The translations under genes were made by a program, and so were the position numbers. Positions 2,548 through 50,231 of a stretch of 64,000 nt of DNA are shown piece by piece. The stretch lies in the NCBI GenBank assembly GCA_045590975.1, contig JAZNRZ010000001.1, positions 10,900-74,899 of the forward strand, written 5' to 3'. The notes beneath the pieces were generated by a model that was given only the letters and a program-made list of their open reading frames with translations, made no database searches and had not been told where the DNA came from. Position 1 is the stretch's first letter; every line of letters begins with the position of its first letter. The stretch comes from Candidatus Nanosyncoccaceae bacterium (GTDB lineage Bacteria; Patescibacteriota; Saccharimonadia; Saccharimonadales; Saccharimonadaceae).

Positions 2548-3757
2548 GCTTCCACTCAAAACCATGTATATCGACCTCAATTCCTGCTTCGCCACCATCG
2601 AACAACAGGCCAGACCAATGCTTCGTGGTCGCCCCGTCGCCGTCACTAACCGACTCACGCCTAATGCCTGTATTGTCGCTGCTAGCTACGAAGCCAAAGA
2701 TCTTGGTATCAAGGTCGGCATGCGCCGCATGGAAGCCGAAAGAATCTCAAAAGATGTCGTTTTTGTCGAGACCGAGCCAGACAAATATATTTTCGTTCAC
2801 AAAAAGCTCCGCAAGATTATGGAAGATTATGCGCCAGATGTCGTCATGAAGTCTATCGACGAAGGCGTCTTAAATCTCGCTCTCAGCCCAGAGCGCATCC
2901 AGAACATGCCCAACCCAGAACTTGTAGCAGAGATTAAAGACAGACTCAGAAACGAAGTCGGAAGCTATATGCGCTGTAATATTGGCATCTCTAGCAACCG
3001 CTTCCTAGCCAAGCTTGCCGCCGAACTCCACAAACCTGACGGCTATGACGAGATTACGCCAGAGAACCAGCGCGAGATTTTCAGCAAACTCAAACTCCAA
3101 GATTTACCTGGCATAAATGTTCGTATGGAGGCCAGACTGAACGCGGTCGGTATTTTTACGCCACTTCAGTTCCTCGATGCTGATGAAGAAATCCTCGTAA
3201 AGATGGTCTGCAAAAGCATCGATGGGCACAAATGGTATCAGAGGCTTCGTGGCATCGAAGTAGACGACTGGGTTAGCGATATTAAATCTATCGGCCGCCA
3301 ATATGTTCTAGAGTCCTGCAAGCTCACTCACGAGCAAATCGAGGCTCGCGTCATCCACCTCGCCGAGGATGCCGGCATGAGATTGCGTAGCAGAGAACTA
3401 TATGCGCGCGGAGTTTATATCTGGGCCGTAGACTATAACGACACCCCACTCCACAAAAATATCCTCCTAAAAGACCCAATCCATACCGATGCGGATATCA
3501 TCCGCGTATCACGCGAGTTATTCAAAGATTTTCCAGCACCACTCAGAATCATCGGCGTCACACTATACAAAATCCAAGACAAGCCCCAAGCCCAACTAAG
3601 CCTAGAACAAGATAGAATCGAGCAAGACAACAGACTTTGTAAAGCTACAGACATCATTAATAGACGTTTCGGCGACCGCACAATATTCTGCGCCGACTCT
3701 TTCGGCACAGAGCTAGTCAAAGTCAAAATCCCATTCGGTTCTACCAGATTCCTATAA
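2540..3757 (+). CDS. dinB: DNA polymerase IV (Y-family)
   Basis: MYIDLNSCFATIEQQ, KSIDEGVLNL, and the overall Y-family layout. Confidence 0.95.
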   Translation: MYKLPLKTMYIDLNSCFATIEQQARPMLRGRPVAVTNRLTPNACIVAASYEAKDLGIKVGMRRMEAERISKDVVFVETEPDKYIFVHKKLRKIMEDYAPDVVMKSIDEGVLNLALSPERIQNMPNPELVAEIKDRLRNEVGSYMRCNIGISSNRFLAKLAAELHKPDGYDEITPENQREIFSKLKLQDLPGINVRMEARLNAVGIFTPLQFLDADEEILVKMVCKSIDGHKWYQRLRGIEVDDWVSDIKSIGRQYVLESCKLTHEQIEARVIHLAEDAGMRLRSRELYARGVYIWAVDYNDTPLHKNILLKDPIHTDADIIRVSRELFKDFPAPLRIIGVTLYKIQDKPQAQLSLEQDRIEQDNRLCKATDIINRRFGDRTIFCADSFGTELVKVKIPFGSTRFL

Positions 3758-3759
3758 AC

Positions 3760-3790
3760 AAAAAGATACCCCTGATAGGGTATCTTTTTA
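3760..3790. terminator. bidirectional intrinsic terminator
   Basis: AAAGATACCC / GGGTATCTTT with A/T runs on both sides. Sits between convergent genes. Confidence 0.85.
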
Positions 3791-3792
3791 AG

Positions 3793-4821
3793 TTAGTTTC
3801 GGCGATCCATACTACGGATACTAAAGATTCCAATTCCAGCAAGCGCGAGAGCAATAAAGACTGCCAAGCTCGTCATGCTTTCACCAGTATCAGGGTTTTC
3901 TGGCTCTTCTGGCTCCTCAGGCTCCTCTGGTTCTTCATAGTTATCGTTATATATGAAGACAATGTCGTTTGCGTCCATACAGTTAATGAGTGGATTACCA
4001 CCAACAGCACATTCTTCATCATCGCCAGACCTATCATCAACCTTCCAGTCCTCAAGACCAAAGATTGTCATAGCGTGACCGTCTACAGCGATGTCTGCCG
4101 TGCGACTATAATAGCGATCGGCAAGCTCTGCTGGTTTTTCGTTGAAAGCCTCATCAGTATAGTAAGTATTCGCAGGAACATCTGTATTGTTCGTCAGATA
4201 GAAGCCCCATTTCTTATGAGCAGGAATCGTGATTTTAAAGGTCTTGCTTACAGCTTCAATTTCATATTCATCAGATTCGAAGTCAGCTTCATATTCGCTA
4301 TAGGCATCATGTTGCTCGTCAAAGAATTTGTAAGCTTTGCTAGACAGCAGACTAGGATCGCCACCTTCGTTATTTAGATAACGCTTTACGATGATTGAAC
4401 TTTGGTTACCTTCGGTCGTATCTGTTTCTGCCGCATCAAAGAGCATACCATTTACAATCTTTGCAACTTCTTCAGTCGTAACAATATCTGCATTTGAAGG
4501 ATCAAGCGGAACTGCCGTTAGGATAATATCGTCATCATAATAGTAGACGCCAATCACATCTTCGGAGCTTGTTTTGCCATAAATCGAATTTAAAGTTACT
4601 TCTAGCGGATTCTCGCCAGTCGAATCATGAATCGAAGCCGGATATTTACTCGAGATTTCCTCTGGAAATGTCTCAATAACCTTTTTGATTACATGTTCGC
4701 CATAAGTTCGCGCGTCTTCCACGTCGTAAGTATGAATACTATCCGCAAAGCTAAAACCTGAGCTTAGCAACGAAGCACCTACAACAGCAAGACCTGCAAC
4801 AAACAGAGTTTTGCTCTTCAT
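3793..4821 (-). CDS. secreted surface protein with NPDTG sorting-signal-like C-terminus
   Basis: N-terminal signal peptide MKSKTLFVAGLAVVGASLLSSGFSFA. C-terminus is (PEE)n-NPDTG, then a hydrophobic helix, then RRN. Confidence 0.85.
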   Translation of the reverse strand: MKSKTLFVAGLAVVGASLLSSGFSFADSIHTYDVEDARTYGEHVIKKVIETFPEEISSKYPASIHDSTGENPLEVTLNSIYGKTSSEDVIGVYYYDDDIILTAVPLDPSNADIVTTEEVAKIVNGMLFDAAETDTTEGNQSSIIVKRYLNNEGGDPSLLSSKAYKFFDEQHDAYSEYEADFESDEYEIEAVSKTFKITIPAHKKWGFYLTNNTDVPANTYYTDEAFNEKPAELADRYYSRTADIAVDGHAMTIFGLEDWKVDDRSGDDEECAVGGNPLINCMDANDIVFIYNDNYEEPEEPEEPEEPENPDTGESMTSLAVFIALALAGIGIFSIRSMDRRN

Positions 4822-4861
4822 TTTTATGTTCCCAATTTTTATTTTGACCTTATTTACTCAT

Positions 4862-4890
4862 AGTATATGCTTATGGTTTTGTGGTGTCAA
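4862..4890 (-). promoter_or_regulatory. promoter TTGACA-17-TATACT
   Basis: Reverse complement reads TTGACACCACAAAACCATAAGCATATACT. Confidence 0.65.
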
Positions 4891-4894
4891 TATA

Positions 4895-4954
4895 TTAGAT
4901 ATATTTTTAATTTTTAAAACAGCCATCATTTTAAAAATTTAAAAATATATCTAA
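4895..4954. repeat. AT-rich ~25-bp-arm palindrome
   Basis: TTAGATATATTTTTAATTTTTAAAA-CAGCCATCA-TTTTAAAAATTTAAAAATATATCTAA. Its core TTTTAAAACAGCCATCATTTTAAAA recurs inverted at 5472-5500. Confidence 0.8.
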
Positions 4955-4994
4955 AAATGAATCATTTATTGAATAAAAACCAACAATTCAACAG

Positions 4995-5050
4995 GCATTT
5001 CTATGTTTATTCCAAAACATGTTCTAGTTTTGAAATAAACATAGAAATGC
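4995..5050. repeat. 24-bp-arm palindrome abutting the -10 of the sRNA-A promoter
   Basis: GCATTTCTATGTTTATTCCAAAAC ... GTTTTGAAATAAACATAGAAATGC, one mismatch. Confidence 0.8.
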
Positions 5051-5062
5051 TACAATATACGC

Positions 5063-5131
5063 AGTGGCTTGGTCTCTAGAAAACCAAGCTCTTTGGGTTA
5101 AGTTACTCGCCTAGCGGCGGGTAACTTTTTT
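5063..5131 (+). ncRNA. candidate antisense sRNA, copy A (antitoxin-like)
   Basis: TGCTACAAT at 5048-5056. 5' hairpin GCUUGGU-CUCUAGAAA-ACCAAGC. Terminator GUUACUCGCC-UAGC-GGCGGGUAAC + U6. Fully complementary to the 3' end of the minus-strand small ORF. Confidence 0.55.
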
Positions 5132-5194
5132 GAGTTTCGGAAACCGAATACTCAACTCCACACTCACGCAAAAGACCGTAATCCTCACGCTCAT
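5111..5194 (-). CDS. conserved 27-aa ORF, copy A (MSVRITVFCVSVELSIRFPKLKKVTRR)
   Basis: TTTACT-17-TATGGT promoter (5345-5317), ~115-nt leader, GAAAGG 6 nt before the ATG. The paralog at 31072..31155 has the same length, with synonymous and conservative differences. Confidence 0.55.
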   Translation of the reverse strand: MSVRITVFCVSVELSIRFPKLKKVTRR

Positions 5195-5440
5195 GTAAAA
5201 CCTTTCTGCGGAGCCTCTAGCTCATCTAGAATCGCCGTTCACTGAGACTCCTGCGAATCGAGCCTCAATAATCTCAATGATCGGACACTCACGGGATACC
5301 ACCAGCCCGTGCATGAACCATAAGACAAGCTCCATAAAAAGTAAAACTTAAGCTATTTCTACCTCTATCACCAAAATACCCATTAAGGCTCAAAAGAGAA
5401 TTGTCACTAGCATCGTTTACAAACTTCCTACGAAAGCTTA

Positions 5441-5522
5441 TATAGCAAAGGGGAGGCATGTTGTTCTATTTTTTAAAAATGATGGTTGTTTTAAAAATAG
5501 AAAACATACTCCCTTTGCTATA
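5441..5522. repeat. ~80-bp long palindrome/hairpin containing the polA -10
   Basis: TATAGCAAAGGGGAG...CTCCCTTTGCTATA with inner arms GTTCTATTTTTTAAAA / TTTTAAAAATAGAAAAC. The right arm carries TGCTATACT. Confidence 0.8.
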
Positions 5523-5530
5523 CTTATCTT

Positions 5531-7969
5531 ATGGATGAACGCGAAAACCTAACAATTATTGACGGCAAAAGCGTCTTTTATCGCGGCTATTACGCCATGG
5601 GCAATCTCTCGCTCCCAGACGGCACGCCGACAGGCGGCGTTTATGGCTTCGCCGCAATGCTTATTGAAATCATCGAGAAACTCAAGCCAGAATACATTGC
5701 AGTCGCTTGGGATAAAGCCAAAACCAACATTCGCCGTCGCCGCGAAATCTACCCAGAATACAAAGGCAATCGAAAGCCAGCTCCGCCAGATTTTTACGCT
5801 CAGATTCCTTATCTTATGGAGCTTCTCGAAGCCTTTCATATTCCACTCTACGAATTCGACGATTACGAAGCTGACGATATTATCGGCACGCTCGCCCGCA
5901 AGGCTCAGGCCGCAGGGAAACGCGTTGAGATTATTTCTGGCGACCTAGATATGCTCCAGATTGTCGATACAAACATTCATATGTATCAGCTCAAGCGTGG
6001 TTTTTCCGACGTCGCCAGCTTCGATATCCCAGCCATCGAAGCCAAATATGGTCTCCGCAAGGATCAGTTCCTAGATCTCAAGTCTATCAAGGGAGATAGC
6101 TCAGACAATATTCCTGGCGTTCCAGGAATTGGCGAGAAGGGCGCAGTTAAACTTTTGCAAGAATACGACACTCTAGAAAACCTTTACGACCACGTCGACG
6201 AAATTACTGGCGCAACAGGCAAGAAACTTGTCGAAGGCAAAGATTCCGCCTTCATGAGCAAAAAGCTTGCTAGTATTCAGTTCGATGCGCCGCTAGAATT
6301 CGATCCAAAAGCCTGCGAGCTCAAAGATTTTAAACCAGAAGCTGTCGTTGCCGAGCTCAAAAAACTCCGCTTCAACTCTTTGCTACACAAGTTCGCCAAA
6401 ATCTTTCCAGATGTCGACCTCAAGGTAGCCCCAGAACCAGATTTCAAAAAACCAAAGCCTGTCGTCAAAAACAGCCCAGATGCTGTTCCGACAGATATTT
6501 TGCCACCACCAGCAGACATCGAGGTCGAGATTCCGAACGGGCTATACCTTAGTCAGCACGTCAAAGAAGACATGCACGCAGACAAAGCTCTAGCCAAAGA
6601 AATCCTAAACGGTCGCGACTATTGGGATCTTGGCCAGGTAGATTTCCTTTTCAATCCACTTGAGAAAAAGCAATCCCAGCTAAGCCTTATCGACCTCCCG
6701 AACAGCAAAGAAGAATACATCAAGCAACGCAAACAGCTCGCTGCTATGCCAAAGCTAGAGCAAATCGTCACGAAGTTCGACCTGCCTCTAATTCCAGTCC
6801 TATACAAGATGGAAGAGGAAGGCTTAAAGATCGACCCAGATCGTTTCGAAGCCCTCCGTATCGAGTTTAGCGCCGAAGAAAACAAGATTAGCAAAGAAAT
6901 TTACGAGATGGTCGGCCACGAGTTTAATATCAACTCGCCACTCCAGCTCTCGCAGGTTCTCTTCGAAGATCTTAGACTCCCAACCAAGGGCATCAAGAAA
7001 ACCCAGCGCGCCTATTCCACTGGTCAGAAAGAGCTAGACAAGCTTCGCGACCTCCACCCAATCATTGGCAAGATTGAGCGCCTCCGCGAAGTTAGCAAGC
7101 TACTCAGCACCTATATCACGCCACTTCCGACTCTTGCGGATAAAAACCTCCGCATTCACAGCACTTTCACTCAAGATGTTACGGCGACCGGCCGTTTGTC
7201 TAGCGTTAATCCAAATCTTCAAAACATTCCAGTCCGTAGTGAAGACGGCAAGCGCATCCGCTATTGCTTCGTACCAGAGAAGGGCAAAGTTTTCGTCGCG
7301 GCAGATTATGCCCAATTTGAGCTTCGCCTTGCCGCAGAGCTCGCAGGCGACGAGAATCTAATCAATGACTTCAACTCTGGCCTAGACATTCATATCAAGA
7401 CCGCCAGCGACGCTTACGGCATCCCGATGGATCAGGTCACAAAAGAACAGCGCCGCGCCGCAAAGGTGATCAACTTCGGTATCATCTACGGCATGAGCGC
7501 CAAGAGTCTATCTGACGGCACCGGTATGACTTTCCATCAAGCCAAAGAATTCATTGATCGCTATATGGAAATTCGCACACCAATCGCAGATTATCTCAAA
7601 GCCCAGCTCGAGCACGGTCGAAAATTTGGCTACGTCGAAACCTACTTTGGTCGCCGCCGCCCAACCCCAGACCTATCCGCGCCAAACTTCCTTATTCGTG
7701 CCGCCGCTGAACGCGCCGCTGCCAATATGCCAATCCAGGGCACAGAGGCAGACCTCGTAAAGCTCGCCATGATAGAAGTCGACAAAGCTCTGCCAGAAGG
7801 CGCCAAACTCGTACTTCAGATCCACGACTCCCTGATGGTAGAGTGCGACGAGAATCAAGCAAGCGAAGTTGCCAAGATTCTCCAAGAAAAGATGGAAAAC
7901 ATTGCACCAGATTTCAAAGTCAAGCTTGCTACAGACGTAAAAATCGCAAACAACTGGGGCGAACTATAA
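5531..7969 (+). CDS. polA: DNA polymerase I (5' nuclease + polymerase domains)
   Basis: N-terminal 5'-3' exonuclease motifs; ADYAQFELR (motif A), RRAAKVINFGIIYGMS (B), QIHDSLMVE (C). Leaderless: TGCTATACT + 6 nt + ATG. Confidence 0.97.
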   Translation: MDERENLTIIDGKSVFYRGYYAMGNLSLPDGTPTGGVYGFAAMLIEIIEKLKPEYIAVAWDKAKTNIRRRREIYPEYKGNRKPAPPDFYAQIPYLMELLEAFHIPLYEFDDYEADDIIGTLARKAQAAGKRVEIISGDLDMLQIVDTNIHMYQLKRGFSDVASFDIPAIEAKYGLRKDQFLDLKSIKGDSSDNIPGVPGIGEKGAVKLLQEYDTLENLYDHVDEITGATGKKLVEGKDSAFMSKKLASIQFDAPLEFDPKACELKDFKPEAVVAELKKLRFNSLLHKFAKIFPDVDLKVAPEPDFKKPKPVVKNSPDAVPTDILPPPADIEVEIPNGLYLSQHVKEDMHADKALAKEILNGRDYWDLGQVDFLFNPLEKKQSQLSLIDLPNSKEEYIKQRKQLAAMPKLEQIVTKFDLPLIPVLYKMEEEGLKIDPDRFEALRIEFSAEENKISKEIYEMVGHEFNINSPLQLSQVLFEDLRLPTKGIKKTQRAYSTGQKELDKLRDLHPIIGKIERLREVSKLLSTYITPLPTLADKNLRIHSTFTQDVTATGRLSSVNPNLQNIPVRSEDGKRIRYCFVPEKGKVFVAADYAQFELRLAAELAGDENLINDFNSGLDIHIKTASDAYGIPMDQVTKEQRRAAKVINFGIIYGMSAKSLSDGTGMTFHQAKEFIDRYMEIRTPIADYLKAQLEHGRKFGYVETYFGRRRPTPDLSAPNFLIRAAAERAAANMPIQGTEADLVKLAMIEVDKALPEGAKLVLQIHDSLMVECDENQASEVAKILQEKMENIAPDFKVKLATDVKIANNWGEL

Positions 7970-12269: not shown

Positions 12270-12334
12270 ATACAAATTAAAACCAACCAGGGTATTAGGA
12301 AATTTAACCACAAGCAATATGCTACAATAATACT

Positions 12335-14185
12335 ATGGCAACAGTCTTAATAGTGGGCAATATTACTAAAGACATTTATCTTCGAATGGATAACCGTCGC
12401 AATCATTTCGAGAAAGACCAGTACGACAAAAACTGGTTAGATATCGCATTTGACGGAAGTTCACACAAATTCTATTCCCGCGCCTCAATCTATGGCGGCG
12501 CAAGCGTTAGCCTAGAGATCCTTGAACGCTTTGGAATAAACACCCAAATTGTAAACACGCCAGCCCGCTTTATCGATGGTCAATTCTTGGCCAACGAAGC
12601 CCAAACAGATTACCGCTATATTCTTTGCCACGACAGAGATATTTCTTATCTAACCCCAAGCGAGATTCGCGAATCCGCCTGGGAAGACCCAGAAGTTGCT
12701 CCAGATTGGCTATATATCGACCGTAGTGCAAACATCACGCCAATCCTTGGCGAAAAAATTAGTATCTACTTAAGCCTAAACAAAAAGACCAGACTCGCCA
12801 TCTTTATTAGCAAGCGCAGCAACCAAAATGCCCGCCATATGCAAAAGTTGCTTCGCCGCGCCAGTATCATTATGACCGACACTGCCTTAAGCTTCCCTGC
12901 CAAGAATCCAGTCATAATCACAAACACTCACGTCATCTTCCAGGGTCGCCAGATTTCAGCCCCACTACATGTCGACAGTAAAGATTTGCTCACCAAGCTA
13001 AATATTCATCTAACTGTCGCCGCCACTATTCTTGGCGCAATTATTCGCGGCAAGACCGTCAACGAGTGCCTATTACTCGCTCGCGCTAACGTCGAAGAGT
13101 CCAAACTTGGCAATACTGCAAACCTAACCAAGCTCGAAAAAGCCATTCTTGGCGATAAGTATCTCGTAGAAAAATTCACCCCGAAAGGACATAAAATGCT
13201 AGAAATCGAAGAAAACGCCCAGCTCATGATGACCCCAGGAAAGGGCATTCTTGCCGCAGACGAATCTGGTGGCTCCATTCATAAAAAGTTCGAAGCTATG
13301 AACATCCCAGACGACGAACAACATCGTCGCGACTACCGCAATCTATTCTTTACGACCCCAGGTCTAGAAAACTTTATTAGCGGCGTCATTCTATTCGACG
13401 AAACCGCAAGGCAAAAAGCCGACAGCGGAGAAGATTTCGTAACCTTCCTTCGCAAGAAGAAGATTATTGCCGGTATCAAGGTTGACCAAGGTCTAGAAAA
13501 CTTCGAAAATTCCGACGAGAAATACACCAAAGGTCTCGAAGGCCTCCCAGAACGCCTTTCAGAATATTACAAGATGGGCGCACGTTTCGCAAAGTGGCGT
13601 GCAGCCTTCGAGCTTACCGATCATAGCCCAAGCGACATGGCCATTCAGAAGAATGCCGAAATCCTTGCTCAATATGCCAAAGATTGCCAGGATGCCAATA
13701 TCGTTCCTATCGTCGAACCAGAACTAGTCTACGATGGCTACTATACAATCGAACAAAACATCGAAACAACCGGCAAGATTCTAGACAAACTCTTCGAAGA
13801 GCTACAAAAGAAGAACGTCAATCTTCGCGGCTGCATCCTCAAGTGCAACATGGTACTAGCAGGCAAGAAATACGAAACTCAGTCCACTCCAGCAGAAGTC
13901 GGTAAAGCGACGGCAGATACGCTTCGCAAGCACGTTCCAGAAGAACTTGCAGGCGTTGTATTCCTAAGCGGTGGTCAGACTGTTCAGCAGGCCACAGATA
14001 ACCTACAAGAGGTCACAAACAATGGCCCATTCCCATGGCCAGTCACCTTCAGCTACGCTCGCGCCTTGCAAGGCCCAGCCCTAGAAGCTTGGAAGGGCAA
14101 CAACGCAAACTATACCGAGGCAAAGAACGCCTTCCTAGCTCGCCTCGTAGCAAACTGCGACGCATTGTCTAAGACAAATAGCTAA
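12335..14185 (+). CDS. fusion protein: degenerate PfkB/ribokinase-like N-domain + class I fructose-bisphosphate aldolase
   Basis: MATVLIVGNITKDIY... is PfkB-like, and the GAGD position reads LTVAATILGA. GKGILAADESGGS, IAGIKVDQG and ILKCNMV are class I FBA motifs. Single uninterrupted ORF. Leaderless: TGCTACAAT + 6 nt + ATG. Confidence 0.85.
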   Translation: MATVLIVGNITKDIYLRMDNRRNHFEKDQYDKNWLDIAFDGSSHKFYSRASIYGGASVSLEILERFGINTQIVNTPARFIDGQFLANEAQTDYRYILCHDRDISYLTPSEIRESAWEDPEVAPDWLYIDRSANITPILGEKISIYLSLNKKTRLAIFISKRSNQNARHMQKLLRRASIIMTDTALSFPAKNPVIITNTHVIFQGRQISAPLHVDSKDLLTKLNIHLTVAATILGAIIRGKTVNECLLLARANVEESKLGNTANLTKLEKAILGDKYLVEKFTPKGHKMLEIEENAQLMMTPGKGILAADESGGSIHKKFEAMNIPDDEQHRRDYRNLFFTTPGLENFISGVILFDETARQKADSGEDFVTFLRKKKIIAGIKVDQGLENFENSDEKYTKGLEGLPERLSEYYKMGARFAKWRAAFELTDHSPSDMAIQKNAEILAQYAKDCQDANIVPIVEPELVYDGYYTIEQNIETTGKILDKLFEELQKKNVNLRGCILKCNMVLAGKKYETQSTPAEVGKATADTLRKHVPEELAGVVFLSGGQTVQQATDNLQEVTNNGPFPWPVTFSYARALQGPALEAWKGNNANYTEAKNAFLARLVANCDALSKTNS

Positions 14186-19907: not shown

Positions 19908-20041
19908 GAAAACACCCCCTTAGGTTTTAGAATCGAAATGCGTTTTAAAGAGCAAAGTATCTTATCTTTATATCACATACTATAACCGCAAATCAAAGAG
20001 ACGCCAAGGGTAAAAACCTGCTTTCGTGGTATAATATTCTT

Positions 20042-21475
20042 ATGCAAAATCTACGAGAGAAATATCCAGAATTTATCTTTGATTCTTTCGAAATGCAAGC
20101 TCTGCCTACAGGCATCTTTGTTGAATATCTCTACAAGCTTGGCGAGCACGAGTTTCGCCCAACTGTCACCATTCCGATCGAAAGCGTCTCCAATAAAGAG
20201 ATAAACAACAGCTTCTTGCACGAGCTTTTCTTTAATTTTGGCATCATTAACGCTATTAGCTACTACAAGCTCACTTGCGCACCAAAATTCGTTATTCGCG
20301 CTGGCCAGCTCGACGACACTCAGAAGTTCTTCTTCCGCAAACTCTTCTACAATGGTCTTGGCGAATTCATGTTTGTAAACAACATCAATATTCCATTCGA
20401 ATCTTTCATGACCATCGAATGCGAAGAACATCCAGAAAACGAACCTACCGTAGAGGACGAAGAGGATTCCCCAGAAGAAGACAACAACTCCGACTTCAAC
20501 CCAGAAGAATCCATCAAGAAGCCAGCCGATCGCTTTAATATTGGCCATAATTTCCATGGCAACCTAATCACGGTTGGTGGCGGCAAAGATTCCGTCGTTG
20601 CCCTTGAGGCTCTTCAGTCCATGCACGCCGATAACCTTTGCTTCCAGTACAATCGCGACCTTTACCCAGAAAACGTCGCCGCACTTGGTTGCATTAAACT
20701 CGCTGGCTACAGAAGCGAAGATACGATCGACTTCAACCTTACTTTCGATAAACACCTTCTCGAGCTAAATAAAGAAGGCTATCTAAATGGTCATATTCCA
20801 TTCTCGTCTACGCTTGCTTTCGCAACCCTTATTGGCGCCTATCTGAACAACCGCAAATATATCGTTCTATCCAACGAAGCCAGCGCCAACGAAGGCAACA
20901 TCTTTGGCACAAATATTAATCACCAGTATTCAAAGTGCTATGAGTTCGAGCAAGATTTCCAGAAATATGTCGCCTACTACCTAACCGAAGAGATCTATTA
21001 CTTCAGCATCTTGCGCTGCCTAAACGAGTTTGAGATTGTTCAGAAATTCCTCAAATTCCCAAGCTACCTCAAGGTCTTCCGCAGCTGTAATGTTGGCACA
21101 AAAGAGAACAAATGGTGTGGTCACTGTGCTAAATGTCTCTATGTCTACATCATGCTTTATCCGTTCGTAGACAAAGCCGTACTACACGAAATCTTCGGCC
21201 ATGACCTACTAGACGACGAGACTTTGACAGACATTTTCAATGGCCTAATCAATCCAGACCTCACTAAGCCATTCGAATGCGTTGGCACAAAAGCCGAGAT
21301 TTGCTACAGCCTCGACCTTGCCGTTCAGGAAAAAGAAATCGAGGGCCTACCGAAACTCCTCAAGGCTTATCGCAAAGCCGGCTATAATCAGTTCCGTGAA
21401 TACAACATTCCGACCTATTACAACCCAGAACATGGCATACCAGAAGATTATCTAAAGCTAATCCTAGACCTATGA
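20042..21475 (+). CDS. PP-loop-like ATPase family protein; candidate MurL-like glutamate epimerase partner of MurD
   Basis: Leaderless (TGGTATAAT + 6 nt + ATG). GGGKDS motif and C-terminal WCGHCAKC. ATGA overlap with murD. Confidence 0.5.
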   Translation: MQNLREKYPEFIFDSFEMQALPTGIFVEYLYKLGEHEFRPTVTIPIESVSNKEINNSFLHELFFNFGIINAISYYKLTCAPKFVIRAGQLDDTQKFFFRKLFYNGLGEFMFVNNINIPFESFMTIECEEHPENEPTVEDEEDSPEEDNNSDFNPEESIKKPADRFNIGHNFHGNLITVGGGKDSVVALEALQSMHADNLCFQYNRDLYPENVAALGCIKLAGYRSEDTIDFNLTFDKHLLELNKEGYLNGHIPFSSTLAFATLIGAYLNNRKYIVLSNEASANEGNIFGTNINHQYSKCYEFEQDFQKYVAYYLTEEIYYFSILRCLNEFEIVQKFLKFPSYLKVFRSCNVGTKENKWCGHCAKCLYVYIMLYPFVDKAVLHEIFGHDLLDDETLTDIFNGLINPDLTKPFECVGTKAEICYSLDLAVQEKEIEGLPKLLKAYRKAGYNQFREYNIPTYYNPEHGIPEDYLKLILDL

Positions 21476-25801: not shown

Positions 25802-25972
25802 ATTGACCCCTCCCATCTTGAAGATATATGAATAAGATTATTTGCACCGAAAGGTCTAGATTATCTCTAATCAGAATCTTAAGGTACCAAATTGCCCATA
25901 CTATACCATAAAAACCCTATTCTTCATAGAGCCACCCCTTAAATTTTGTTGATTTCATGGTATAATACTCGC

Positions 25973-27421
25973 ATGACTATTACACGTTTCGCCCCGTCTC
26001 CTACGGGATATATCCATATCGGCAATGTCCGCAGCGCAATCTACCCATATCTTGTTGCTAAGCAAGAACAGGGAAGCTTTATTCTTCGTATCGAAGATAC
26101 TGACCAGGCCAGATATGTCGAAGGCGCAACGGAACTTATTCTTGATACCCTAAAATGGCTCGGCCTAGAATGGGACGAAGGCCCAGAAAAAGGCGGCGAG
26201 CACGGCCCATATTACCAGACTCAGCGCAAAGACCTATATATCGAGTGGGCAAAGAAACTTATCGCTGAAGGTCGTGCTTATGCCGACACAACCACTCCGG
26301 AAGAGATGGCAAAATATCGCGAAGAAGCTCAGAAAGCAAAGAAACCATTCCTATTCCGCGAACATCGCCCAGAGAACCCACCAGAGTGGGAGCTAGGCAT
26401 GCCACTACGTTTCAAGGCAGAGCCAAAAGATTACACCTACGAAGACGCTGTTTATGGCGAGCTCCACATGGGCCCAGAAACTCAGGACGATATTATTCTA
26501 ATCAAGTCTGACGGTTTGCCAACCTACAACTTCGCACATATCGTTGACGATTCTAGCATGGGAATTACTCATATCATGCGCGGTCAGGAATACCTGCCAA
26601 GTATGGGCAATTATCTTGCACTTTATGAAGCTCTTGGCGTTCCACGCCCAGTGTTCGTACATCTTCCACATATTCTTGGCCCAAGTGGCAACAAGAAGCT
26701 CAGCAAGCGCGATGGCGCAAAATCCGTCACAGATTACCGCAACGATGGCATTCTTCCAGAAGCCATGCTAAACTACCTCGCATGCCTTGGCTGGAACGAC
26801 GGCACCGAAGACGAGATGTATACCAAAGAAGAGCTTATCGAGAAATTCAAACTAGATCGCATTCAGCGCGCTGGTGCTCGTTTTGACGAGACAAAACTCC
26901 TCTGGCTCAATGGTCAGTGGATCCGCCGCCGCTTTGCCGAAGATCCAAAGAAACTCTTTGCCGAAACTGCAAATTTCTGGCCAGAAAGCGCCAAGAATGT
27001 TTCCGACGAAGAGAAATACAAGATCTTTTGCATTATTTACGACCGCCTCAAGACCCTTTCCGATCTTCGCACTATGACTACCTATTTCTTCGAAGATCCA
27101 ACTATCGACATGAGCATGATTCAGACCAACAAAGCCCTCAAGAAGCTTAGCGAGTCCGAACTCTGCCAAATCCTTAGCGATGCCGCAAATGGTCTATCCG
27201 AACTCAACGAATGGTCTGCAGAAATGCTCCAGAACAAGCTTAACGAACTCATGGCAAAATCCGAGCAAAAGCCAGCCGTATTCTTTGGCCTTATTCGTCT
27301 AAGCGTTAGCTTTGCGCCATTTAGCCCGGCTTTGCACGACACCCTAAGCGTCCTAGGCAAAGAAAAAGCTCTAGCTCGCATGCGTGCCGTTGTTACTGCC
27401 TTCAAAAACGACCAGCAATAA
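25973..27421 (+). CDS. gltX: glutamyl-tRNA synthetase
   Basis: RFAPSPTGYIHIGNVRSA (HIGH) and KLSKRDG (KMSKS). Leaderless: TGGTATAAT + 6 nt + ATG 25973. Confidence 0.95.
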   Translation: MTITRFAPSPTGYIHIGNVRSAIYPYLVAKQEQGSFILRIEDTDQARYVEGATELILDTLKWLGLEWDEGPEKGGEHGPYYQTQRKDLYIEWAKKLIAEGRAYADTTTPEEMAKYREEAQKAKKPFLFREHRPENPPEWELGMPLRFKAEPKDYTYEDAVYGELHMGPETQDDIILIKSDGLPTYNFAHIVDDSSMGITHIMRGQEYLPSMGNYLALYEALGVPRPVFVHLPHILGPSGNKKLSKRDGAKSVTDYRNDGILPEAMLNYLACLGWNDGTEDEMYTKEELIEKFKLDRIQRAGARFDETKLLWLNGQWIRRRFAEDPKKLFAETANFWPESAKNVSDEEKYKIFCIIYDRLKTLSDLRTMTTYFFEDPTIDMSMIQTNKALKKLSESELCQILSDAANGLSELNEWSAEMLQNKLNELMAKSEQKPAVFFGLIRLSVSFAPFSPALHDTLSVLGKEKALARMRAVVTAFKNDQQ

Positions 27422-30073: not shown

Positions 30074-30832
30074 TTACTCTTCAATCATATCCATGACGTA
30101 TTGAACAGTAATATCTAATTGTTTGTCGACCGAAATACTCGCTTTTCCGTCGCCTTTTTGCTCGCCATAGCTACCAAACTGCGCATGATTTCCGCCAGAA
30201 ATTTCATAAACTATTGCGCTAGATGGCAAATATTTTGCGCTCTCGCTTATTTTCTCGCGATTAATCACGCCGTCATTTGAGCCATAAATCTCTAACACTT
30301 TCATATCATCCGGCAGTTTAGCAGTCGGGTAGGCTGCCAACATGACCAAGCCCTCTATTCCTTCTGGATGCTCGGCCGCATATTTTGCCGCCATTGCACC
30401 ACCCATAGAATGGCCACCAATATACAAATGTTCGTATGGCCGATAGCCTTCACCTAGACGACTTACGACATCTTTAAAAGCATCTTGATTCAATATCGCA
30501 AAATTAAATGGCATCTTTACAACCACACAGCTAAGACCAGCTTTAGCCAAGCGCGACATTAGCGGAGCATAAGCCCTATATTCAACTCGAGCACCAGGGT
30601 AGAATACAAGCAAATCATCAGTCCGATCAAGGTTAGTAAACCAAATCTCATTATCGTATTGTTCGACACTAACAATATCCGTGCTTTTTAGACTATCTAA
30701 AGCAACATTGTCCGCACGATAATAACTCGCAAGATAAATCCCAATCACCAACACAACGAAAGCAAATACCCCACAGATACTAGCGATTATTATCTTCTTC
30801 TTATTGCTTTTAGCTTGTTTCTTCCTAGTCAT
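30074..30832 (-). CDS. membrane-anchored alpha/beta hydrolase
   Basis: N-terminal TM helix; nucleophile elbow GGHSMGG. Confidence 0.85.
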   Translation of the reverse strand: MTRKKQAKSNKKKIIIASICGVFAFVVLVIGIYLASYYRADNVALDSLKSTDIVSVEQYDNEIWFTNLDRTDDLLVFYPGARVEYRAYAPLMSRLAKAGLSCVVVKMPFNFAILNQDAFKDVVSRLGEGYRPYEHLYIGGHSMGGAMAAKYAAEHPEGIEGLVMLAAYPTAKLPDDMKVLEIYGSNDGVINREKISESAKYLPSSAIVYEISGGNHAQFGSYGEQKGDGKASISVDKQLDITVQYVMDMIEE

Positions 30833-31071
30833 ACTACTTATGATTATAACTTTTTTACGACATAATTCTTACCAAAAAGCAAAAAACATCATGCTTCCGC
30901 TTGTAACAATTTTAGATATGCAATATGCTACATGCACGGGAGTTATTGGTAAGCTTCCGGGGTGTCGAAAAATATGAAAGAATGGAACTCTGCTCGCAGG
31001 GGCTTCAAACGAGTAATATTAAGTAAACGGCGATTCTAGGTAGCTAGGAGGCTCCTGAGAATAGGCAAAGC

Positions 31072-31155
31072 ATGGCTCTGAGGTTAACAATCTTAGGTAT
31101 GAGTGTGGAGTTGAAGGTAAGGTTCCGAAAACCTAAAAGAAAAGCTCGCCGATAA
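31072..31155 (+). CDS. conserved 27-aa ORF, copy B (MALRLTILGMSVELKVRFRKPKRKARR)
   Basis: TTGTAA-17-TATGCT promoter (30901-30929) and ~135-nt leader sharing blocks with copy A. Same length, conservative and synonymous differences. Confidence 0.55.
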   Translation: MALRLTILGMSVELKVRFRKPKRKARR

Positions 31156-31208
31156 GGTGAGCTAATCCAAAATTACCTTTATAGCGGGGTTCCTAGAGCT
31201 CCGCTCTT
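31134..31208 (-). ncRNA. candidate antisense sRNA, copy B (antitoxin-like)
   Basis: TTGTAC-17-TGCTAAAAT on the minus strand (-10 at 31215-31220, TG to 31223). 5' hairpin with loop CUCUAGGAA. Terminator AGCUCACC-UUAUC-GGCGAGCU + U-run. Overlaps the ORF 3' end. Confidence 0.55.
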
Positions 31209-31281
31209 GTTATTATTTTAGCATCTTCACGAGCATTGTACAAAATTGCCACCATCACTCGCAAACCCTTATACTATAACT

Positions 31282-33294: not shown

Positions 33295-34215
33295 TTAACG
33301 ACGACTTTTCTTGTTGACCATATAAGCCATGCTGGTAGCACTAAGTACCAAGCAAGAGCCAAACACAATGAATGTTTCTACAGGCAAATCTGCCGTATCT
33401 GGGTTGTCTTCGACCGTAAAGTCTACCTCAATAGAGGCAGCGCCAGCATACTCGTCTTCGAAGGAAATCTTCAAGGTATGCTTACCGGTCGACAAACCAT
33501 CCAAATAGCTAGGTTTTAGCGTCAGAATAATGCTACCGTTTTCTGCATCATAATCACCTTCGCCAAGCTCGTTGCCATCAACGGTCAAGATATCCAAATT
33601 TCGCACTTCGCCAGTAGTATGGAACTCTAGACCGCTCTCGCTACCTTTGATATAAGTCTGATCCTCGCCACTAATAAGAGCAAAGCCAGTGCCAGTATAA
33701 ATCTTGCCAATATTATAGATATACTGATTAACTACTAAATTTTCTATCGAGGCACTCATGTTATTTGGGTCGCCAACCAAAACGACACTATCCAACAGAT
33801 TACCCCATATACAGGATACTTCAGAAGTCTCAGTATTCGTCGTGCAAGTCACTAAACCCGTAAGATTCTCGTAGACTGCCACTTCGTCCTGAAGATAGTC
33901 ATCATACATAACAATCTTATCGTCTTCTTTATATACGCAGAAAAATGGCTCGTCTTCTCCACTATCATCTATCTGAACGAATTTACCATTTTTAACCGTA
34001 AAGCATTCTTCACCATACCCAGAAGCATCAATCATTTTAGAGAACATTTCCGCCAAGTTTTCGTCCTCAATGACAACATCCTGACCATTCGTAAGATCAA
34101 TATGATCAACGGTTATGTCCTTATTATCTGCAAAAGCTTCAGCTCCAATAAACGGAGAAGCCACAAGAGCTAACGCCGCAACTCCGCTCAAAAGAAAAAC
34201 ACCCACTTTTCTCAC
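33295..34215 (-). CDS. secreted surface protein with NPDTA sorting-signal-like C-terminus
   Basis: GGAGGT lies 8 nt before the GTG start. Signal peptide present. C-terminus is NPDTA, then a hydrophobic helix, then KKSRR. Confidence 0.8.
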   Translation of the reverse strand: MRKVGVFLLSGVAALALVASPFIGAEAFADNKDITVDHIDLTNGQDVVIEDENLAEMFSKMIDASGYGEECFTVKNGKFVQIDDSGEDEPFFCVYKEDDKIVMYDDYLQDEVAVYENLTGLVTCTTNTETSEVSCIWGNLLDSVVLVGDPNNMSASIENLVVNQYIYNIGKIYTGTGFALISGEDQTYIKGSESGLEFHTTGEVRNLDILTVDGNELGEGDYDAENGSIILTLKPSYLDGLSTGKHTLKISFEDEYAGAASIEVDFTVEDNPDTADLPVETFIVFGSCLVLSATSMAYMVNKKSRR

Positions 34216-34411
34216 TTATATATACCTCCAAATTTATATACATCAATTATAGCATTAGCAGAATCATTGGCGCAAACACAAAAATAGCCCTCTCTCAAAG
34301 GGGCTATTTTATTTTCAAAAAAGTTAGGTCAAATGTTTGGTTCCAAACAGGAACATTTTCATTATAACACACTTTACAGTATTTGTCAATTTTGGTATAA
34401 TCTAAACAGTT

Positions 34412-35713
34412 ATGAAATTACCAGTTGTTGCCATTATCGGCCAAACCAACGCTGGCAAGTCCAGCCTTTTTAACCGCCTTGTTCGCCACTCGCAGGCCAT
34501 CGTCGCTCGCGAAGCTGGTACCACCAGGGATAACGTCATGGGCCGCGTCGATGACCGTTATATTTTGATCGACACAGCTGGTCTTAAAGATCCTGACGAC
34601 GAATTCGAAAGCCATATTCAGGAACAAATCGAAGACGCCGTCGACAGTGCGGACCTTATTCTTATTGCGCTAGATAGCACCAAATATCCAAACCAGGACG
34701 ATAAGCTCATCGCCAAGAAAGCCCTCAAGAGCGGCAAGCCAACCTTGCTACTCCTTAACAAAGCCGACCTCGGCGAAGCTTTGTCAGTCGACGAATTCTA
34801 TAGCCTCGGCATCAAGGATCTCATCCGTACTTCCGCAACCACCGGTCTACACATTAACGACCTTCGCGACCGCATCCTATTTGAACTAGAAAAAATCGGC
34901 TTCAAAACTTCTCAGAAGGTCAAAGAAGAAGACAGTCTCAAACTCGCCCTTATTGGCCGTCCAAACGTCGGCAAGAGCTCTCTATTTAACAACCTAGCCA
35001 AGAAACAGCAAGCCATTGTCGCTAACCTTTCTGGCACCACCCGTGACGTCAACCGCACCACAATCCGCTACAAAGGCAAAGCAATCGAGCTTCTAGACAC
35101 CGCAGGTCTTCGCCGCTCTGGCAAGAGGGAAGTAGGCATCGAAAAATTCTCCGCACTCCGCACTTTGTCCGCAATCGAAGAATCTGACGTCTGCTGCCTC
35201 CTTATCGATAGCACCGAGCCACATTGCAAGCTCGATCAGACCCTAGCTGGCGAAATCATCAAGGCAGGCAAAGGTATCATCCTAGTCGTCACAAAGACCG
35301 ACCTCGAAGGCAAGACTTCCGACGAAATCCTTGATCAAATCACCTACGATTTCAACTTTATCCCATTCGCTCCAGTTATCATGACTAGCTCTCTAACTGG
35401 CAAGAACACCACTAAGATCTTCGAGCTCGCAAACAATATCAACGAAGCTCGCCATGCCGAACTAAAGACTGCTGACCTTAACAAGCTTCTGCAAGACGCT
35501 ATAAACGCCCATCCACCGGCCGGCCTCAAGAATACCCATCCAAAGCTACGCTACATGGTCCAGACCGACACTTGCCCACCTTGGTTCGTAGTTTACGGTA
35601 GCAACCTCAGCCTTCTTCACTGGAGCTACAAGCGTTATCTAGAACGCCGCCTTCGCGAAGCCTACGACTTTGGCGGCACGCCAATCTTCTTTAGCTTCCG
35701 CAACCGCGACTAA
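34412..35713 (+). CDS. der: ribosome-associated GTPase Der/EngA
   Basis: Two G-domains (GQTNAGKSSLFN, GRPNVGKSSLFN) + KH-like C-terminus. Confidence 0.95.
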   Translation: MKLPVVAIIGQTNAGKSSLFNRLVRHSQAIVAREAGTTRDNVMGRVDDRYILIDTAGLKDPDDEFESHIQEQIEDAVDSADLILIALDSTKYPNQDDKLIAKKALKSGKPTLLLLNKADLGEALSVDEFYSLGIKDLIRTSATTGLHINDLRDRILFELEKIGFKTSQKVKEEDSLKLALIGRPNVGKSSLFNNLAKKQQAIVANLSGTTRDVNRTTIRYKGKAIELLDTAGLRRSGKREVGIEKFSALRTLSAIEESDVCCLLIDSTEPHCKLDQTLAGEIIKAGKGIILVVTKTDLEGKTSDEILDQITYDFNFIPFAPVIMTSSLTGKNTTKIFELANNINEARHAELKTADLNKLLQDAINAHPPAGLKNTHPKLRYMVQTDTCPPWFVVYGSNLSLLHWSYKRYLERRLREAYDFGGTPIFFSFRNRD

Positions 35714-50203: not shown

Positions 50204-50231
50204 TGCTTGCATTTTTTGATATAATATTTTC

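Follow-up and report, generated by a model that had tools for sequence, protein, structure and literature searches.

What is encoded between the gene of a surface protein on the minus strand (3793-4821) and polA on the plus strand (5531-7969) in the 64,000 nucleotides (nt) of the Candidatus Nanosyncoccaceae bacterium contig JAZNRZ010000001.1 that we analysed (the window)? The original prediction, made from the letters alone, had placed there a hidden module resembling a type I toxin-antitoxin (TA) locus, in which a 27-codon open reading frame (ORF) converges with an antisense small RNA (sRNA), and every element that it had described on the two strands of this first cassette, copy A, is present where it had been placed. 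From comparison with related genomes we consider it highly probable that each of the module's two genes, the small ORF and the antisense sRNA, is real, and we lean, with less assurance, towards each ~300-bp cassette being a self-contained two-gene module that acts like a 3'-overlap type I TA locus. The parts of copy A are the following.

~5040-5345, minus strand (sense): whole cassette of copy A
5317..5345, minus: sense promoter, with -35 TTTACT (5345-5340), a 17-nt spacer and -10 TATGGT (5322-5317)
5195..5311, minus: 5' untranslated region (UTR), or leader, of ~117 nt, with the P1 hairpin ACGGG/CCCGU and the blocks GUGUC, UCGCAGG and AACGGCGAUUCUAG
Further parts of the same 5' UTR, minus: strands X (GGAGUCUC) and D (GAGGCUCC) and a weak Shine-Dalgarno sequence (SD; AGG) 6 nt 5' of the AUG
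5111..5194, minus: 27-codon ORF encoding MSVRITVFCVSVELSIRFPKLKKVTRR, stop codon TAG
5055..5110, minus: 3' UTR of the mRNA, with the 3' arm of the ORF-end hairpin, a variable spacer and the terminal hairpin 5089-5067 (loop UUCUAGA)
5048..5056, plus: antisense promoter, an extended -10 with the sequence TGCTACAAT
5063..5131, plus: predicted antisense sRNA of ~69 nt, with a 5' hairpin (5067-5089), a spacer and an intrinsic terminator

With a predicted transcript start near 5311, the mRNA of copy A would run from ~5311 to 5055 and contain the whole sRNA (5063-5131) in its 3' end, and the same convergent layout with 3' overlap was found in the second copy and in all the homologs described below. 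The sRNA is fully complementary to the last 7 codons of the mRNA, its stop codon and its 3' UTR. Its 5' hairpin is GCTTGGT-CTCTAGAAA-ACCAAGC at 5067-5089, with the loop CUCUAGAAA, and its terminator stem (5100-5127) has 12 pairs, 6 of them G-C, followed by six T in a run that extends to 5131; the predicted fold consists of two hairpins (-28 kcal/mol). The second, inverted copy that had been announced at 30.9-31.2 kb is there with the same layout. This copy B aligns end to end with copy A at 75% identity overall, and its transcript start is predicted near 30935.

~30900-31225, plus strand (sense), opposite to copy A: whole cassette of copy B
30901..30929, plus: sense promoter, TTGTAA (30901-30906), a 17-nt spacer and TATGCT (30924-30929)
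30935..31071, plus: 5' UTR of ~137 nt, with the blocks of copy A and a 15-nt insertion
31072..31155, plus: 27-codon ORF encoding MALRLTILGMSVELKVRFRKPKRKARR, stop codon TAA
31156..31220, plus: 3' UTR of the mRNA, with the terminal hairpin (31183-31205) and a U-rich, terminator-like tail
31135..31223, minus: antisense unit, with the extended -10 TGCTAAAAT (31223-31215) and a predicted sRNA from ~31208 to ~31135
Parts of this sRNA, minus: 5' hairpin, spacer, terminator stem (31163-31143) and tail UUUUCUUUU

Nine further copies were obtained by two pattern scans (public genomes and metagenomes), two synteny walks and one protein search, giving 11 distinct copies, all of them in Saccharibacteria near the organism of the window. 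Their sources are Nanosyncoccaceae-like metagenome-assembled genomes (MAGs) and sheep-rectum or similar samples, gut or rumen. The pattern used on the public genome and metagenome contigs, AACGGCGATTN{50,80}TGAGTGTGGAG, gave eight real matches, all in Saccharibacteria (six genome contigs and two metagenome contigs, one of the latter duplicating the copy L009); the other 12 matches were discarded as chance hits in high-GC sequence. The pattern was too strict, and missed L035, which has GGAA. A nucleotide search with nhmmer and a hidden Markov model of the peptide run on six-frame translations added no more copies in all 42 loci and the window. The copies fall into two types, with copies A and B of the window denoted winA and winB.

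Type A: winA, L042, L001, L006, L019
Type B: winB, L004, L005, L007, L009, L035

These copies allowed us to ask whether the short frame is a gene. The ORF measures exactly 84 nt in 11 of 11 copies, with identical start and stop positions, and the alignment of A against B has no indels within it and many in both UTRs. None of these copies has a broken frame beside kept nucleotide blocks. Pooled over six within-type comparisons, the ratio of non-synonymous to synonymous change (pN/pS) was 0.21 in frame versus 0.54 and 1.04 in the other two frames, and about 19 of 33 events were synonymous by a hand count in which the events are not fully independent, versus 23% expected (binomial P ~2e-5). Between L035 and winB the synonymous changes are TTA>TTG, GAG>GAA, TTG>CTG, AAG>AAA and CCT>CCC and the non-synonymous ones GTA>ATT (V>I) and CGA>AAG (R>K, which keeps a basic residue); in addition, a 1-nt deletion in L035 converts TAA-G to TAG and retains an in-frame stop. 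Flips between the Arg codons AGG and CGG and the Leu codons TTG and CTG recur among the copies. The coding signature originally claimed from the two window copies thus stands, although the statement that their differences are only synonymous or conservative was too strong: A and B differ by 4 synonymous and 14 non-synonymous codons, non-conservative replacements such as C>G, P>R, L>P and V>K among them, and it is because of the added homologs, not of A versus B alone, that the signal is convincing. The substitution pattern indicates that the ORF is protein-coding and under purifying selection at the protein level.

As a separate observation on L035, its changes with respect to winB cluster in ~30 nt of the ORF (9 substitutions; window 31139-31163 versus L035:5838-5861), the other ~250 nt being near identical. 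Gene conversion by a paralog that was not sampled could account for such a patch. A conserved upstream ORF in the leader was also considered and rejected, as the open frames there differ between A and B.

The same alignment bears on a quite different explanation, namely that copy A gives rise on the minus strand to a single structured RNA of ~260 nt that does not code for protein, the 27-codon frame being a by-product. Actually, the sense strands fold better than shuffled sequences (z = -4.9 and -2.9; no shuffle reached their stability), and the copies share long invariant blocks, including 15 nt inside the ORF (TGAGTGTGGAGTTGA). The stop codon lies within a hairpin loop, where U-A-R is constant and the remaining positions vary, and the UUCUAGR of the leader can pair with the loop of the 3' hairpin, a pseudoknot with which one A-U to G-C exchange between A and B is compatible. 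However, the frame-specific excess of synonymous changes, the CGA>AAG, AGG/CGG and TTG/CTG replacements and the UAA/UAG exchange in a variable loop would be unexpected in such an RNA. L035 alters the "invariant" ORF block by two synonymous changes (GAG TTG > GAA CTG), and 14-15 identical bases are, by our estimate, not unusual at 75% identity over ~270 nt. Nor is there an Rfam match that would support it: at the gathering threshold the whole window gave tRNA-Glu only, and both copies searched on both strands with E up to 10 gave only chance microRNA (miRNA) or leader matches. With no relevant match in Rfam, identities as a ribozyme, riboswitch, 6S RNA, transfer-messenger RNA (tmRNA) or guide RNA were dropped. 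Altogether we find a purely non-coding element very unlikely and keep the coding ORF.

On the opposite strand, TGnTAnAAT is found just past the terminal hairpin in all 10 copies that reach this region, varying at its two degenerate positions only (TGC/TGA/TGT and TAC/TAT/TAA). The motif occurs 26 times in the window versus 10.3 expected, a count attained by 0 of 100 shuffles, and is the organism's own promoter type. Often it stands only 6-8 nt 5' of an ATG, and for this reason many window genes look leaderless. Each predicted sRNA has 67-74 nt (-20 to -30 kcal/mol) and consists of a 5' hairpin, a spacer and an intrinsic terminator with its U run, such an antisense terminator being present in every copy reaching the region. 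The complementarity with the sense RNA is complete over the ~70 nt of the whole sRNA. Wobble pairs provide information about the strand on which each hairpin works. Those of the ORF-end hairpin (U.G) are on the antisense strand in each type A copy with a complete hairpin, and in L001 two antisense U.G pairs correspond to C.A mismatches on the sense strand; those of the terminal hairpin (G.U, U.G) are on the sense strand in all copies. Since the wobbles lie on the strand whose 3' end each hairpin forms, this supports two convergent transcripts, each with its own 3' hairpin. Furthermore, 6 of the 8 pairs of the terminal hairpin are compensatory, 96% of the cells being paired versus 74% in shuffles (0 of 500 shuffles equal), and the CUAG core of its loop is invariant, in agreement with the stem covariation around a conserved loop that had been described from the two window copies. 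This conservation indicates that the antisense promoter, terminator and hairpins are under selection, and makes it very likely that the antisense RNA is real.

Regarding the promoter type itself, extended -10 elements (TGnTAtAAT) without a Shine-Dalgarno sequence were seen at 12320-12337, 20027-20044, 25958-25975, 34393-34414, 50217-50234 and 5513-5533 (polA). Other window genes carry a strong AAGGAGG, both initiation modes being present in one small genome.

The position of the antisense unit raises another explanation, in which its promoter and terminator would form a cis-acting leader that attenuates polA (copy A) or a hydrolase gene (copy B), or the ORF would encode a leader peptide that acts on the gene following the mRNA. 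A same-strand gene is indeed located downstream of the antisense unit in 5 of 5 contexts, and one follows the mRNA in both window copies. Nevertheless, the flanking genes are unrelated (polA, acetate-kinase-like, alpha/beta hydrolase, peptidase-like and unknown), polA has its own extended -10 (TGCTATACT) 6 nt upstream of the ATG, and the next gene after the mRNA is convergent in L001, L007 and L042. The antisense terminator comes ~70 nt after the start with conserved sequence beyond it, an order that is wrong for a riboswitch. Amino-acid conservation of the peptide would also be unneeded. An attenuator of this kind is therefore, to our judgement, most unlikely.

The genomic surroundings suggest instead a stand-alone cassette. 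At least two copies per genome were found in the window (A and B), in the MAG that holds L001 and L006 and in another that holds L005 and L007, and viral contigs and phage and plasmid collections contained no genuine copy. In a synteny walk on homologs of the protein downstream of copy B, the element was confined to close relatives (L035, with an identity of ~88% or higher) and was missing at 57-75% identity. Relatives of polA at 68-90% identity were also without the element and had different genes in the dinB-polA interval. The distribution is thus narrow and patchy, at variable sites. In five independent contexts the element has no constant partner among the protein genes, and we therefore take the cassette to be stand-alone. 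In each of the five, the mRNA promoter has upstream of it a gene that reads away from it (window 5330-5531 and 30832-30900; L001, L006 and L007) and is hence co-oriented with the antisense RNA, an arrangement that would avoid read-through into the ORF and in which read-through from the sRNA promoter into the upstream gene may occur. The similarity of L042 to the window stops just past the antisense promoter, a point that, by this comparison, marks the edge of the cassette.

Around copy A two alike AT-rich palindromic hairpins lie in inverted orientation (4895-4954 and 5464-5508). Their arms 4900-4944 and 5464-5508 are 82% complementary, with a 25-nt core found nowhere else in the 64 kb. Bidirectional terminators with an insulating role are one possible identity for them, and the boundaries of an inserted cassette another. 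The interval from the dinB-like Y-family polymerase gene to polA (window 3757-5531, compared with L038, L039 and L041) is a variable spot, occupied in relatives by no gene, by a 471-aa (amino-acid) gene or by a 113-aa gene plus a dCTP deaminase gene, and in the window by the surface protein and copy A. This surface protein (3793-4821, minus) and another one at 33295-34215 (minus) are secreted, lack a Pfam domain and end in NPDT[GA], a hydrophobic stretch and basic residues, an ending that resembles a sortase-type sorting signal with a non-canonical motif.

What the long leader does is the next question. A hexamer pair is found at constant distance from the conserved ACGGG start of the leader in all the copies (TTCACA-17-TAGGGT in L001), and the sense promoter of copy B is conserved in L004, L005, L007, L009 and L035. 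Having no TG extension, this sense promoter (TAnnnT) looks weaker than the antisense one. A toxin promoter weaker than that of its antitoxin is the usual relation. The 5' UTR is the most conserved part of the cassette, with its blocks invariant between A and B. WinB, L004 and L009 have 0 differences over the 139-nt UTR and ORFs that differ at 2-3 positions, winB and L035 differ at 4 of 139 UTR versus 11 of 84 ORF positions, and type B copies as a whole show 0-4 differences per 139 in the UTR and 2-11 per 84 in the ORF. Both the P1 hairpin and the best candidate helix, between strands X and D, have their wobbles on the sense strand, and so the leader structure belongs to the mRNA. Strand X (GGRGYYUC) has as alternative partners an upstream strand, the downstream strand D (GAGGYYCC) or, for part of its length, a duplicated AUUGAG segment, and D could pair in its turn with the invariant block CGAUUCUAG. 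A helix between leader and ORF (GGCUCC:GGAGUU) was rejected as a conserved feature, being broken in L001 and altered in L035. The leader, proposed originally as long and structured, measures ~117 nt, is highly conserved and belongs to a sense strand that folds better than shuffles, and with the available sequences no specific helix in it had statistical support beyond shuffles. The degree of conservation indicates that the leader is a functional RNA, and we infer that it controls the ORF.

This leader also counts in favour of an alternative without any toxin, in which the cassette would encode a small protein of physiological function, for example one that binds nucleic acid, ribosome or envelope, dosed by a sensor-like leader and trimmed by the cis-antisense RNA. 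The evidence for coding and for the antisense RNA is equally compatible with it, the peptide is strongly cationic and has no transmembrane helix, and the leader (the winB and L035 values above, and no change in 139 nt in three species) is far above synonymous-site conservation, something that suits an RNA binding a ligand or a protein over a plain brake on translation. On the other hand, the sensor leader has no match among riboswitch or leader families, and the patchy spread, several divergent paralogs per genome, variable spots and rapid change of the recognition region are typical of selfish or addictive modules and not of small housekeeping proteins. We consider a non-toxic protein of this sort the main rival, possible if rather unlikely.

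The change in the recognition region is rather striking when paralogs are compared. The overlap between sRNA and mRNA is the fastest-changing region of the cassette and the spacer its fastest segment. In L001 and L006, paralogs of one MAG, 1 of 118 UTR positions and 1 of 84 ORF positions differ, versus 7 of 24 in the terminal hairpin (compensated) and 4 of 10 in the spacer. Similarly, L005 and L007 differ at 2 of 139 UTR and 11 of 19 spacer positions, and winA and L042 at 0 of 119 and 4 of 10. Such fast divergence agrees with selection that keeps each paralogous RNA pair specific to itself; alternatively, the spacer may be under relaxed constraint.

The peptide was more difficult to place. Residues 2-8 and 10-18 alternate between hydrophobic and polar, with a turn at L/F-G/C and a Lys/Arg-rich tail; the net charge is +5 to +9 and charged residues are found at positions 4, 13 and 17. 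It looks like an amphipathic beta-hairpin-like segment followed by a polybasic tail. Among 1.84 billion representative proteins, queried with the concatenated A and B peptides and with a 36-aa in-frame extension, the sole match was P0203, a 74-aa ORF of a near-identical strain (L042:260-484, Logan SRR16020856) in which an out-of-frame leader ORF is fused to the 27-aa peptide. The fetched L042 locus does not translate to this protein, so P0203, the peptide's only trace in the protein databases, is probably a gene-calling or assembly artefact.

Taking these observations together, the type I TA-like mechanism remains our best explanation, because the layout fits the 3'-overlap loci of Bacillus and the population features fit selfish multi-copy modules. 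In such a scheme a moderately weak -35/-10 promoter would produce an mRNA of ~255-285 nt with its 117-137-nt leader, the weak-SD ORF and a 3' hairpin, and a near-consensus extended -10 beyond this hairpin would produce the sRNA of 67-74 nt, whose terminator stem lies over the last codons with the stop codon in the loop. The abundant sRNA would pair with the 3' end of the mRNA, probably from the conserved CUAG loops or from the spacer, and RNase III or another double-strand RNase would cleave the duplex, and/or the duplex would lock the leader in a non-translatable fold. Alternative helices of the leader would keep the weak ribosome-binding site poorly used. If the sRNA were depleted, the peptide would be made and the cell harmed or arrested.

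Several observations weigh against this proposal. The hallmark of nearly all type I toxins is a hydrophobic alpha-helical transmembrane segment, and the peptide has none. No stretch of it without charge exceeds 8 residues, the hydropathy of the best 15-residue segment is 1.2-1.8 and the hydrophobic moment is of the beta type (~1.9 at 170 degrees versus ~0.15 at 100 degrees), which bears out the early remark that the peptide is atypical and has no clean transmembrane helix. Searches of Pfam, NCBIfam, PADLOC and PDB gave no match for the peptide, and no toxin or antitoxin RNA family matched the cassette. In the leader, X and D pair in 100% of the cells, yet this is also the case in 308 of 500 column shuffles, and no fold that hides the ribosome-binding site was established. 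The minimum-energy folds differ between lineages and the SD region is predicted to be 50-85% unpaired, with a value of about half for the AGG 6 nt before the AUG. The 5' hairpin of the sRNA has an internal A.C mismatch in 4 of 6 type B copies, and type A mRNAs are without a canonical U-tract terminator. Finally, statistical power is limited because there are only 11 copies in three lineages (winA-like, L001-like and B). As a reading of the locus as type I TA-like, the original prediction is therefore supported in part, for the architecture (coding ORF, convergent antisense RNA and covarying hairpin), and the transmembrane hallmark of the toxins is absent, as it had itself remarked; its suggestion of a possible new family agrees with the lack of any match in Rfam, Pfam, NCBIfam, PADLOC and PDB.

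With regard to the 3' end of the type A mRNA, a long hairpin at 4995-5050 (24-nt arms, 96% complementary) comes immediately 3' of the hairpin that ends the copy A mRNA, and the -35 region of the antisense promoter is partly contained in it. This mRNA has no U tract, and the long hairpin may be what actually terminates it. No counterpart of it exists downstream of the near-identical copy in L042.

The interest of the cassette derives from its host and from its peptide. Reports of type I TA systems are limited to Proteobacteria, Firmicutes and Tenericutes and to one recent candidate in cyanobacteria (PMC12390103), and their toxins are nearly all hydrophobic with an alpha-helical transmembrane domain, SymE and RalR being exceptions (PMC6562991, PMC12390103). 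Our literature search found no paper linking type I TA to Saccharibacteria or to the Candidate Phyla Radiation (CPR). If confirmed in the ultra-small, host-dependent Saccharibacteria, the module would place toxins of this RNA-controlled class in a region of the bacterial tree very different from those groups. A toxic peptide would be a new toxin type with a sequence pattern without precedent, and together with its cognate RNA antidote might be used for counter-selection or plasmid maintenance in Saccharibacteria genetics. The near-invariant leader is a candidate new regulatory RNA. There is also an annotation blind spot, since a gene of 27 codons is below the ORF length usually reported by gene callers. 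Only tentatively would we go as far as proposing that this is the first type I TA family of the CPR, its effector a cationic beta-hairpin peptide with an intracellular or envelope target, its leader a sensor or folding switch, and its hairpin and spacer the elements that keep the sRNAs cognate-specific.

Comparison with known systems helps to delimit what is new. The par locus has one bidirectional terminator common to both RNAs and inhibitory pairing at 5' direct repeats around the start of fst. Like par (fst/RNA II) of the Enterococcus faecalis plasmid pAD1 (mentioned in PMC6562991), the cassette has convergent transcripts that share sequence at their 3' ends and would be expected to make contact between loops. 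Unlike par, each RNA of the cassette has its own 3' hairpin, and RNAduplex predictions of the sRNA against the ORF start region gave no pairing site common to A and B. The ibs/Sib loci of E. coli are similar in having several paralogous copies per genome that differ most in the region of RNA-RNA recognition, a divergence that keeps each Sib antitoxin specific to its own toxin mRNA. Sib RNAs cover the entire ibs ORF and Ibs peptides have 18-19 aa and are very hydrophobic, whereas the sRNA of the cassette covers only the end of the ORF and the peptide has 27 aa and is cationic.

A very small, partly basic peptide is found also in aapA1/IsoA1 of H. pylori (AapA1, 30 aa) and in hok/Sok (PMC5416894, PMC6733600). 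As in aapA1 and hok, the mRNA is strongly conserved and could form several mutually exclusive helices, and kissing-loop pairing with the antitoxin would be expected. The possible contact between UUCUAGR and the 3' loop recalls the 5'-3' locking of the full-length aapA1 and hok mRNAs, the parallel resting on a single compensatory exchange. Whereas IsoA1 and Sok lie over the 5' part of their toxin mRNAs, the cassette has its overlap at the 3' end.

It is in this last aspect that the cassette resembles bsrG/SR4, txpA/RatA, bsrE/SR5 and yonT/SR6 of B. subtilis, which have a small ORF on a structured mRNA (PMC3834814, PMC6562991) and a convergent antisense RNA complementary to the 3' end of the toxin mRNA. 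First contact would be expected between hairpin loops here too; that of SR4 with bsrG involves the terminator loop. In the Bacillus systems RNase III cuts the duplex, and SR4 also alters the fold around the SD (PMC3834814, PMC6562991). There is no sequence or family relationship with these loci, and their toxins are transmembrane and have 38-59 aa, in contrast with the 27-aa peptide of the cassette, which is cationic, beta-patterned and without a transmembrane segment. The sRNA is shorter (~70 nt) and lies wholly inside the overlap, and the host is a member of the Saccharibacteria (CPR), with no prophage context seen. Our best reading of the cassette is thus a putative type I TA-like module made from new parts, with the general plan of the bsrG/SR4-type loci and outside every known family.

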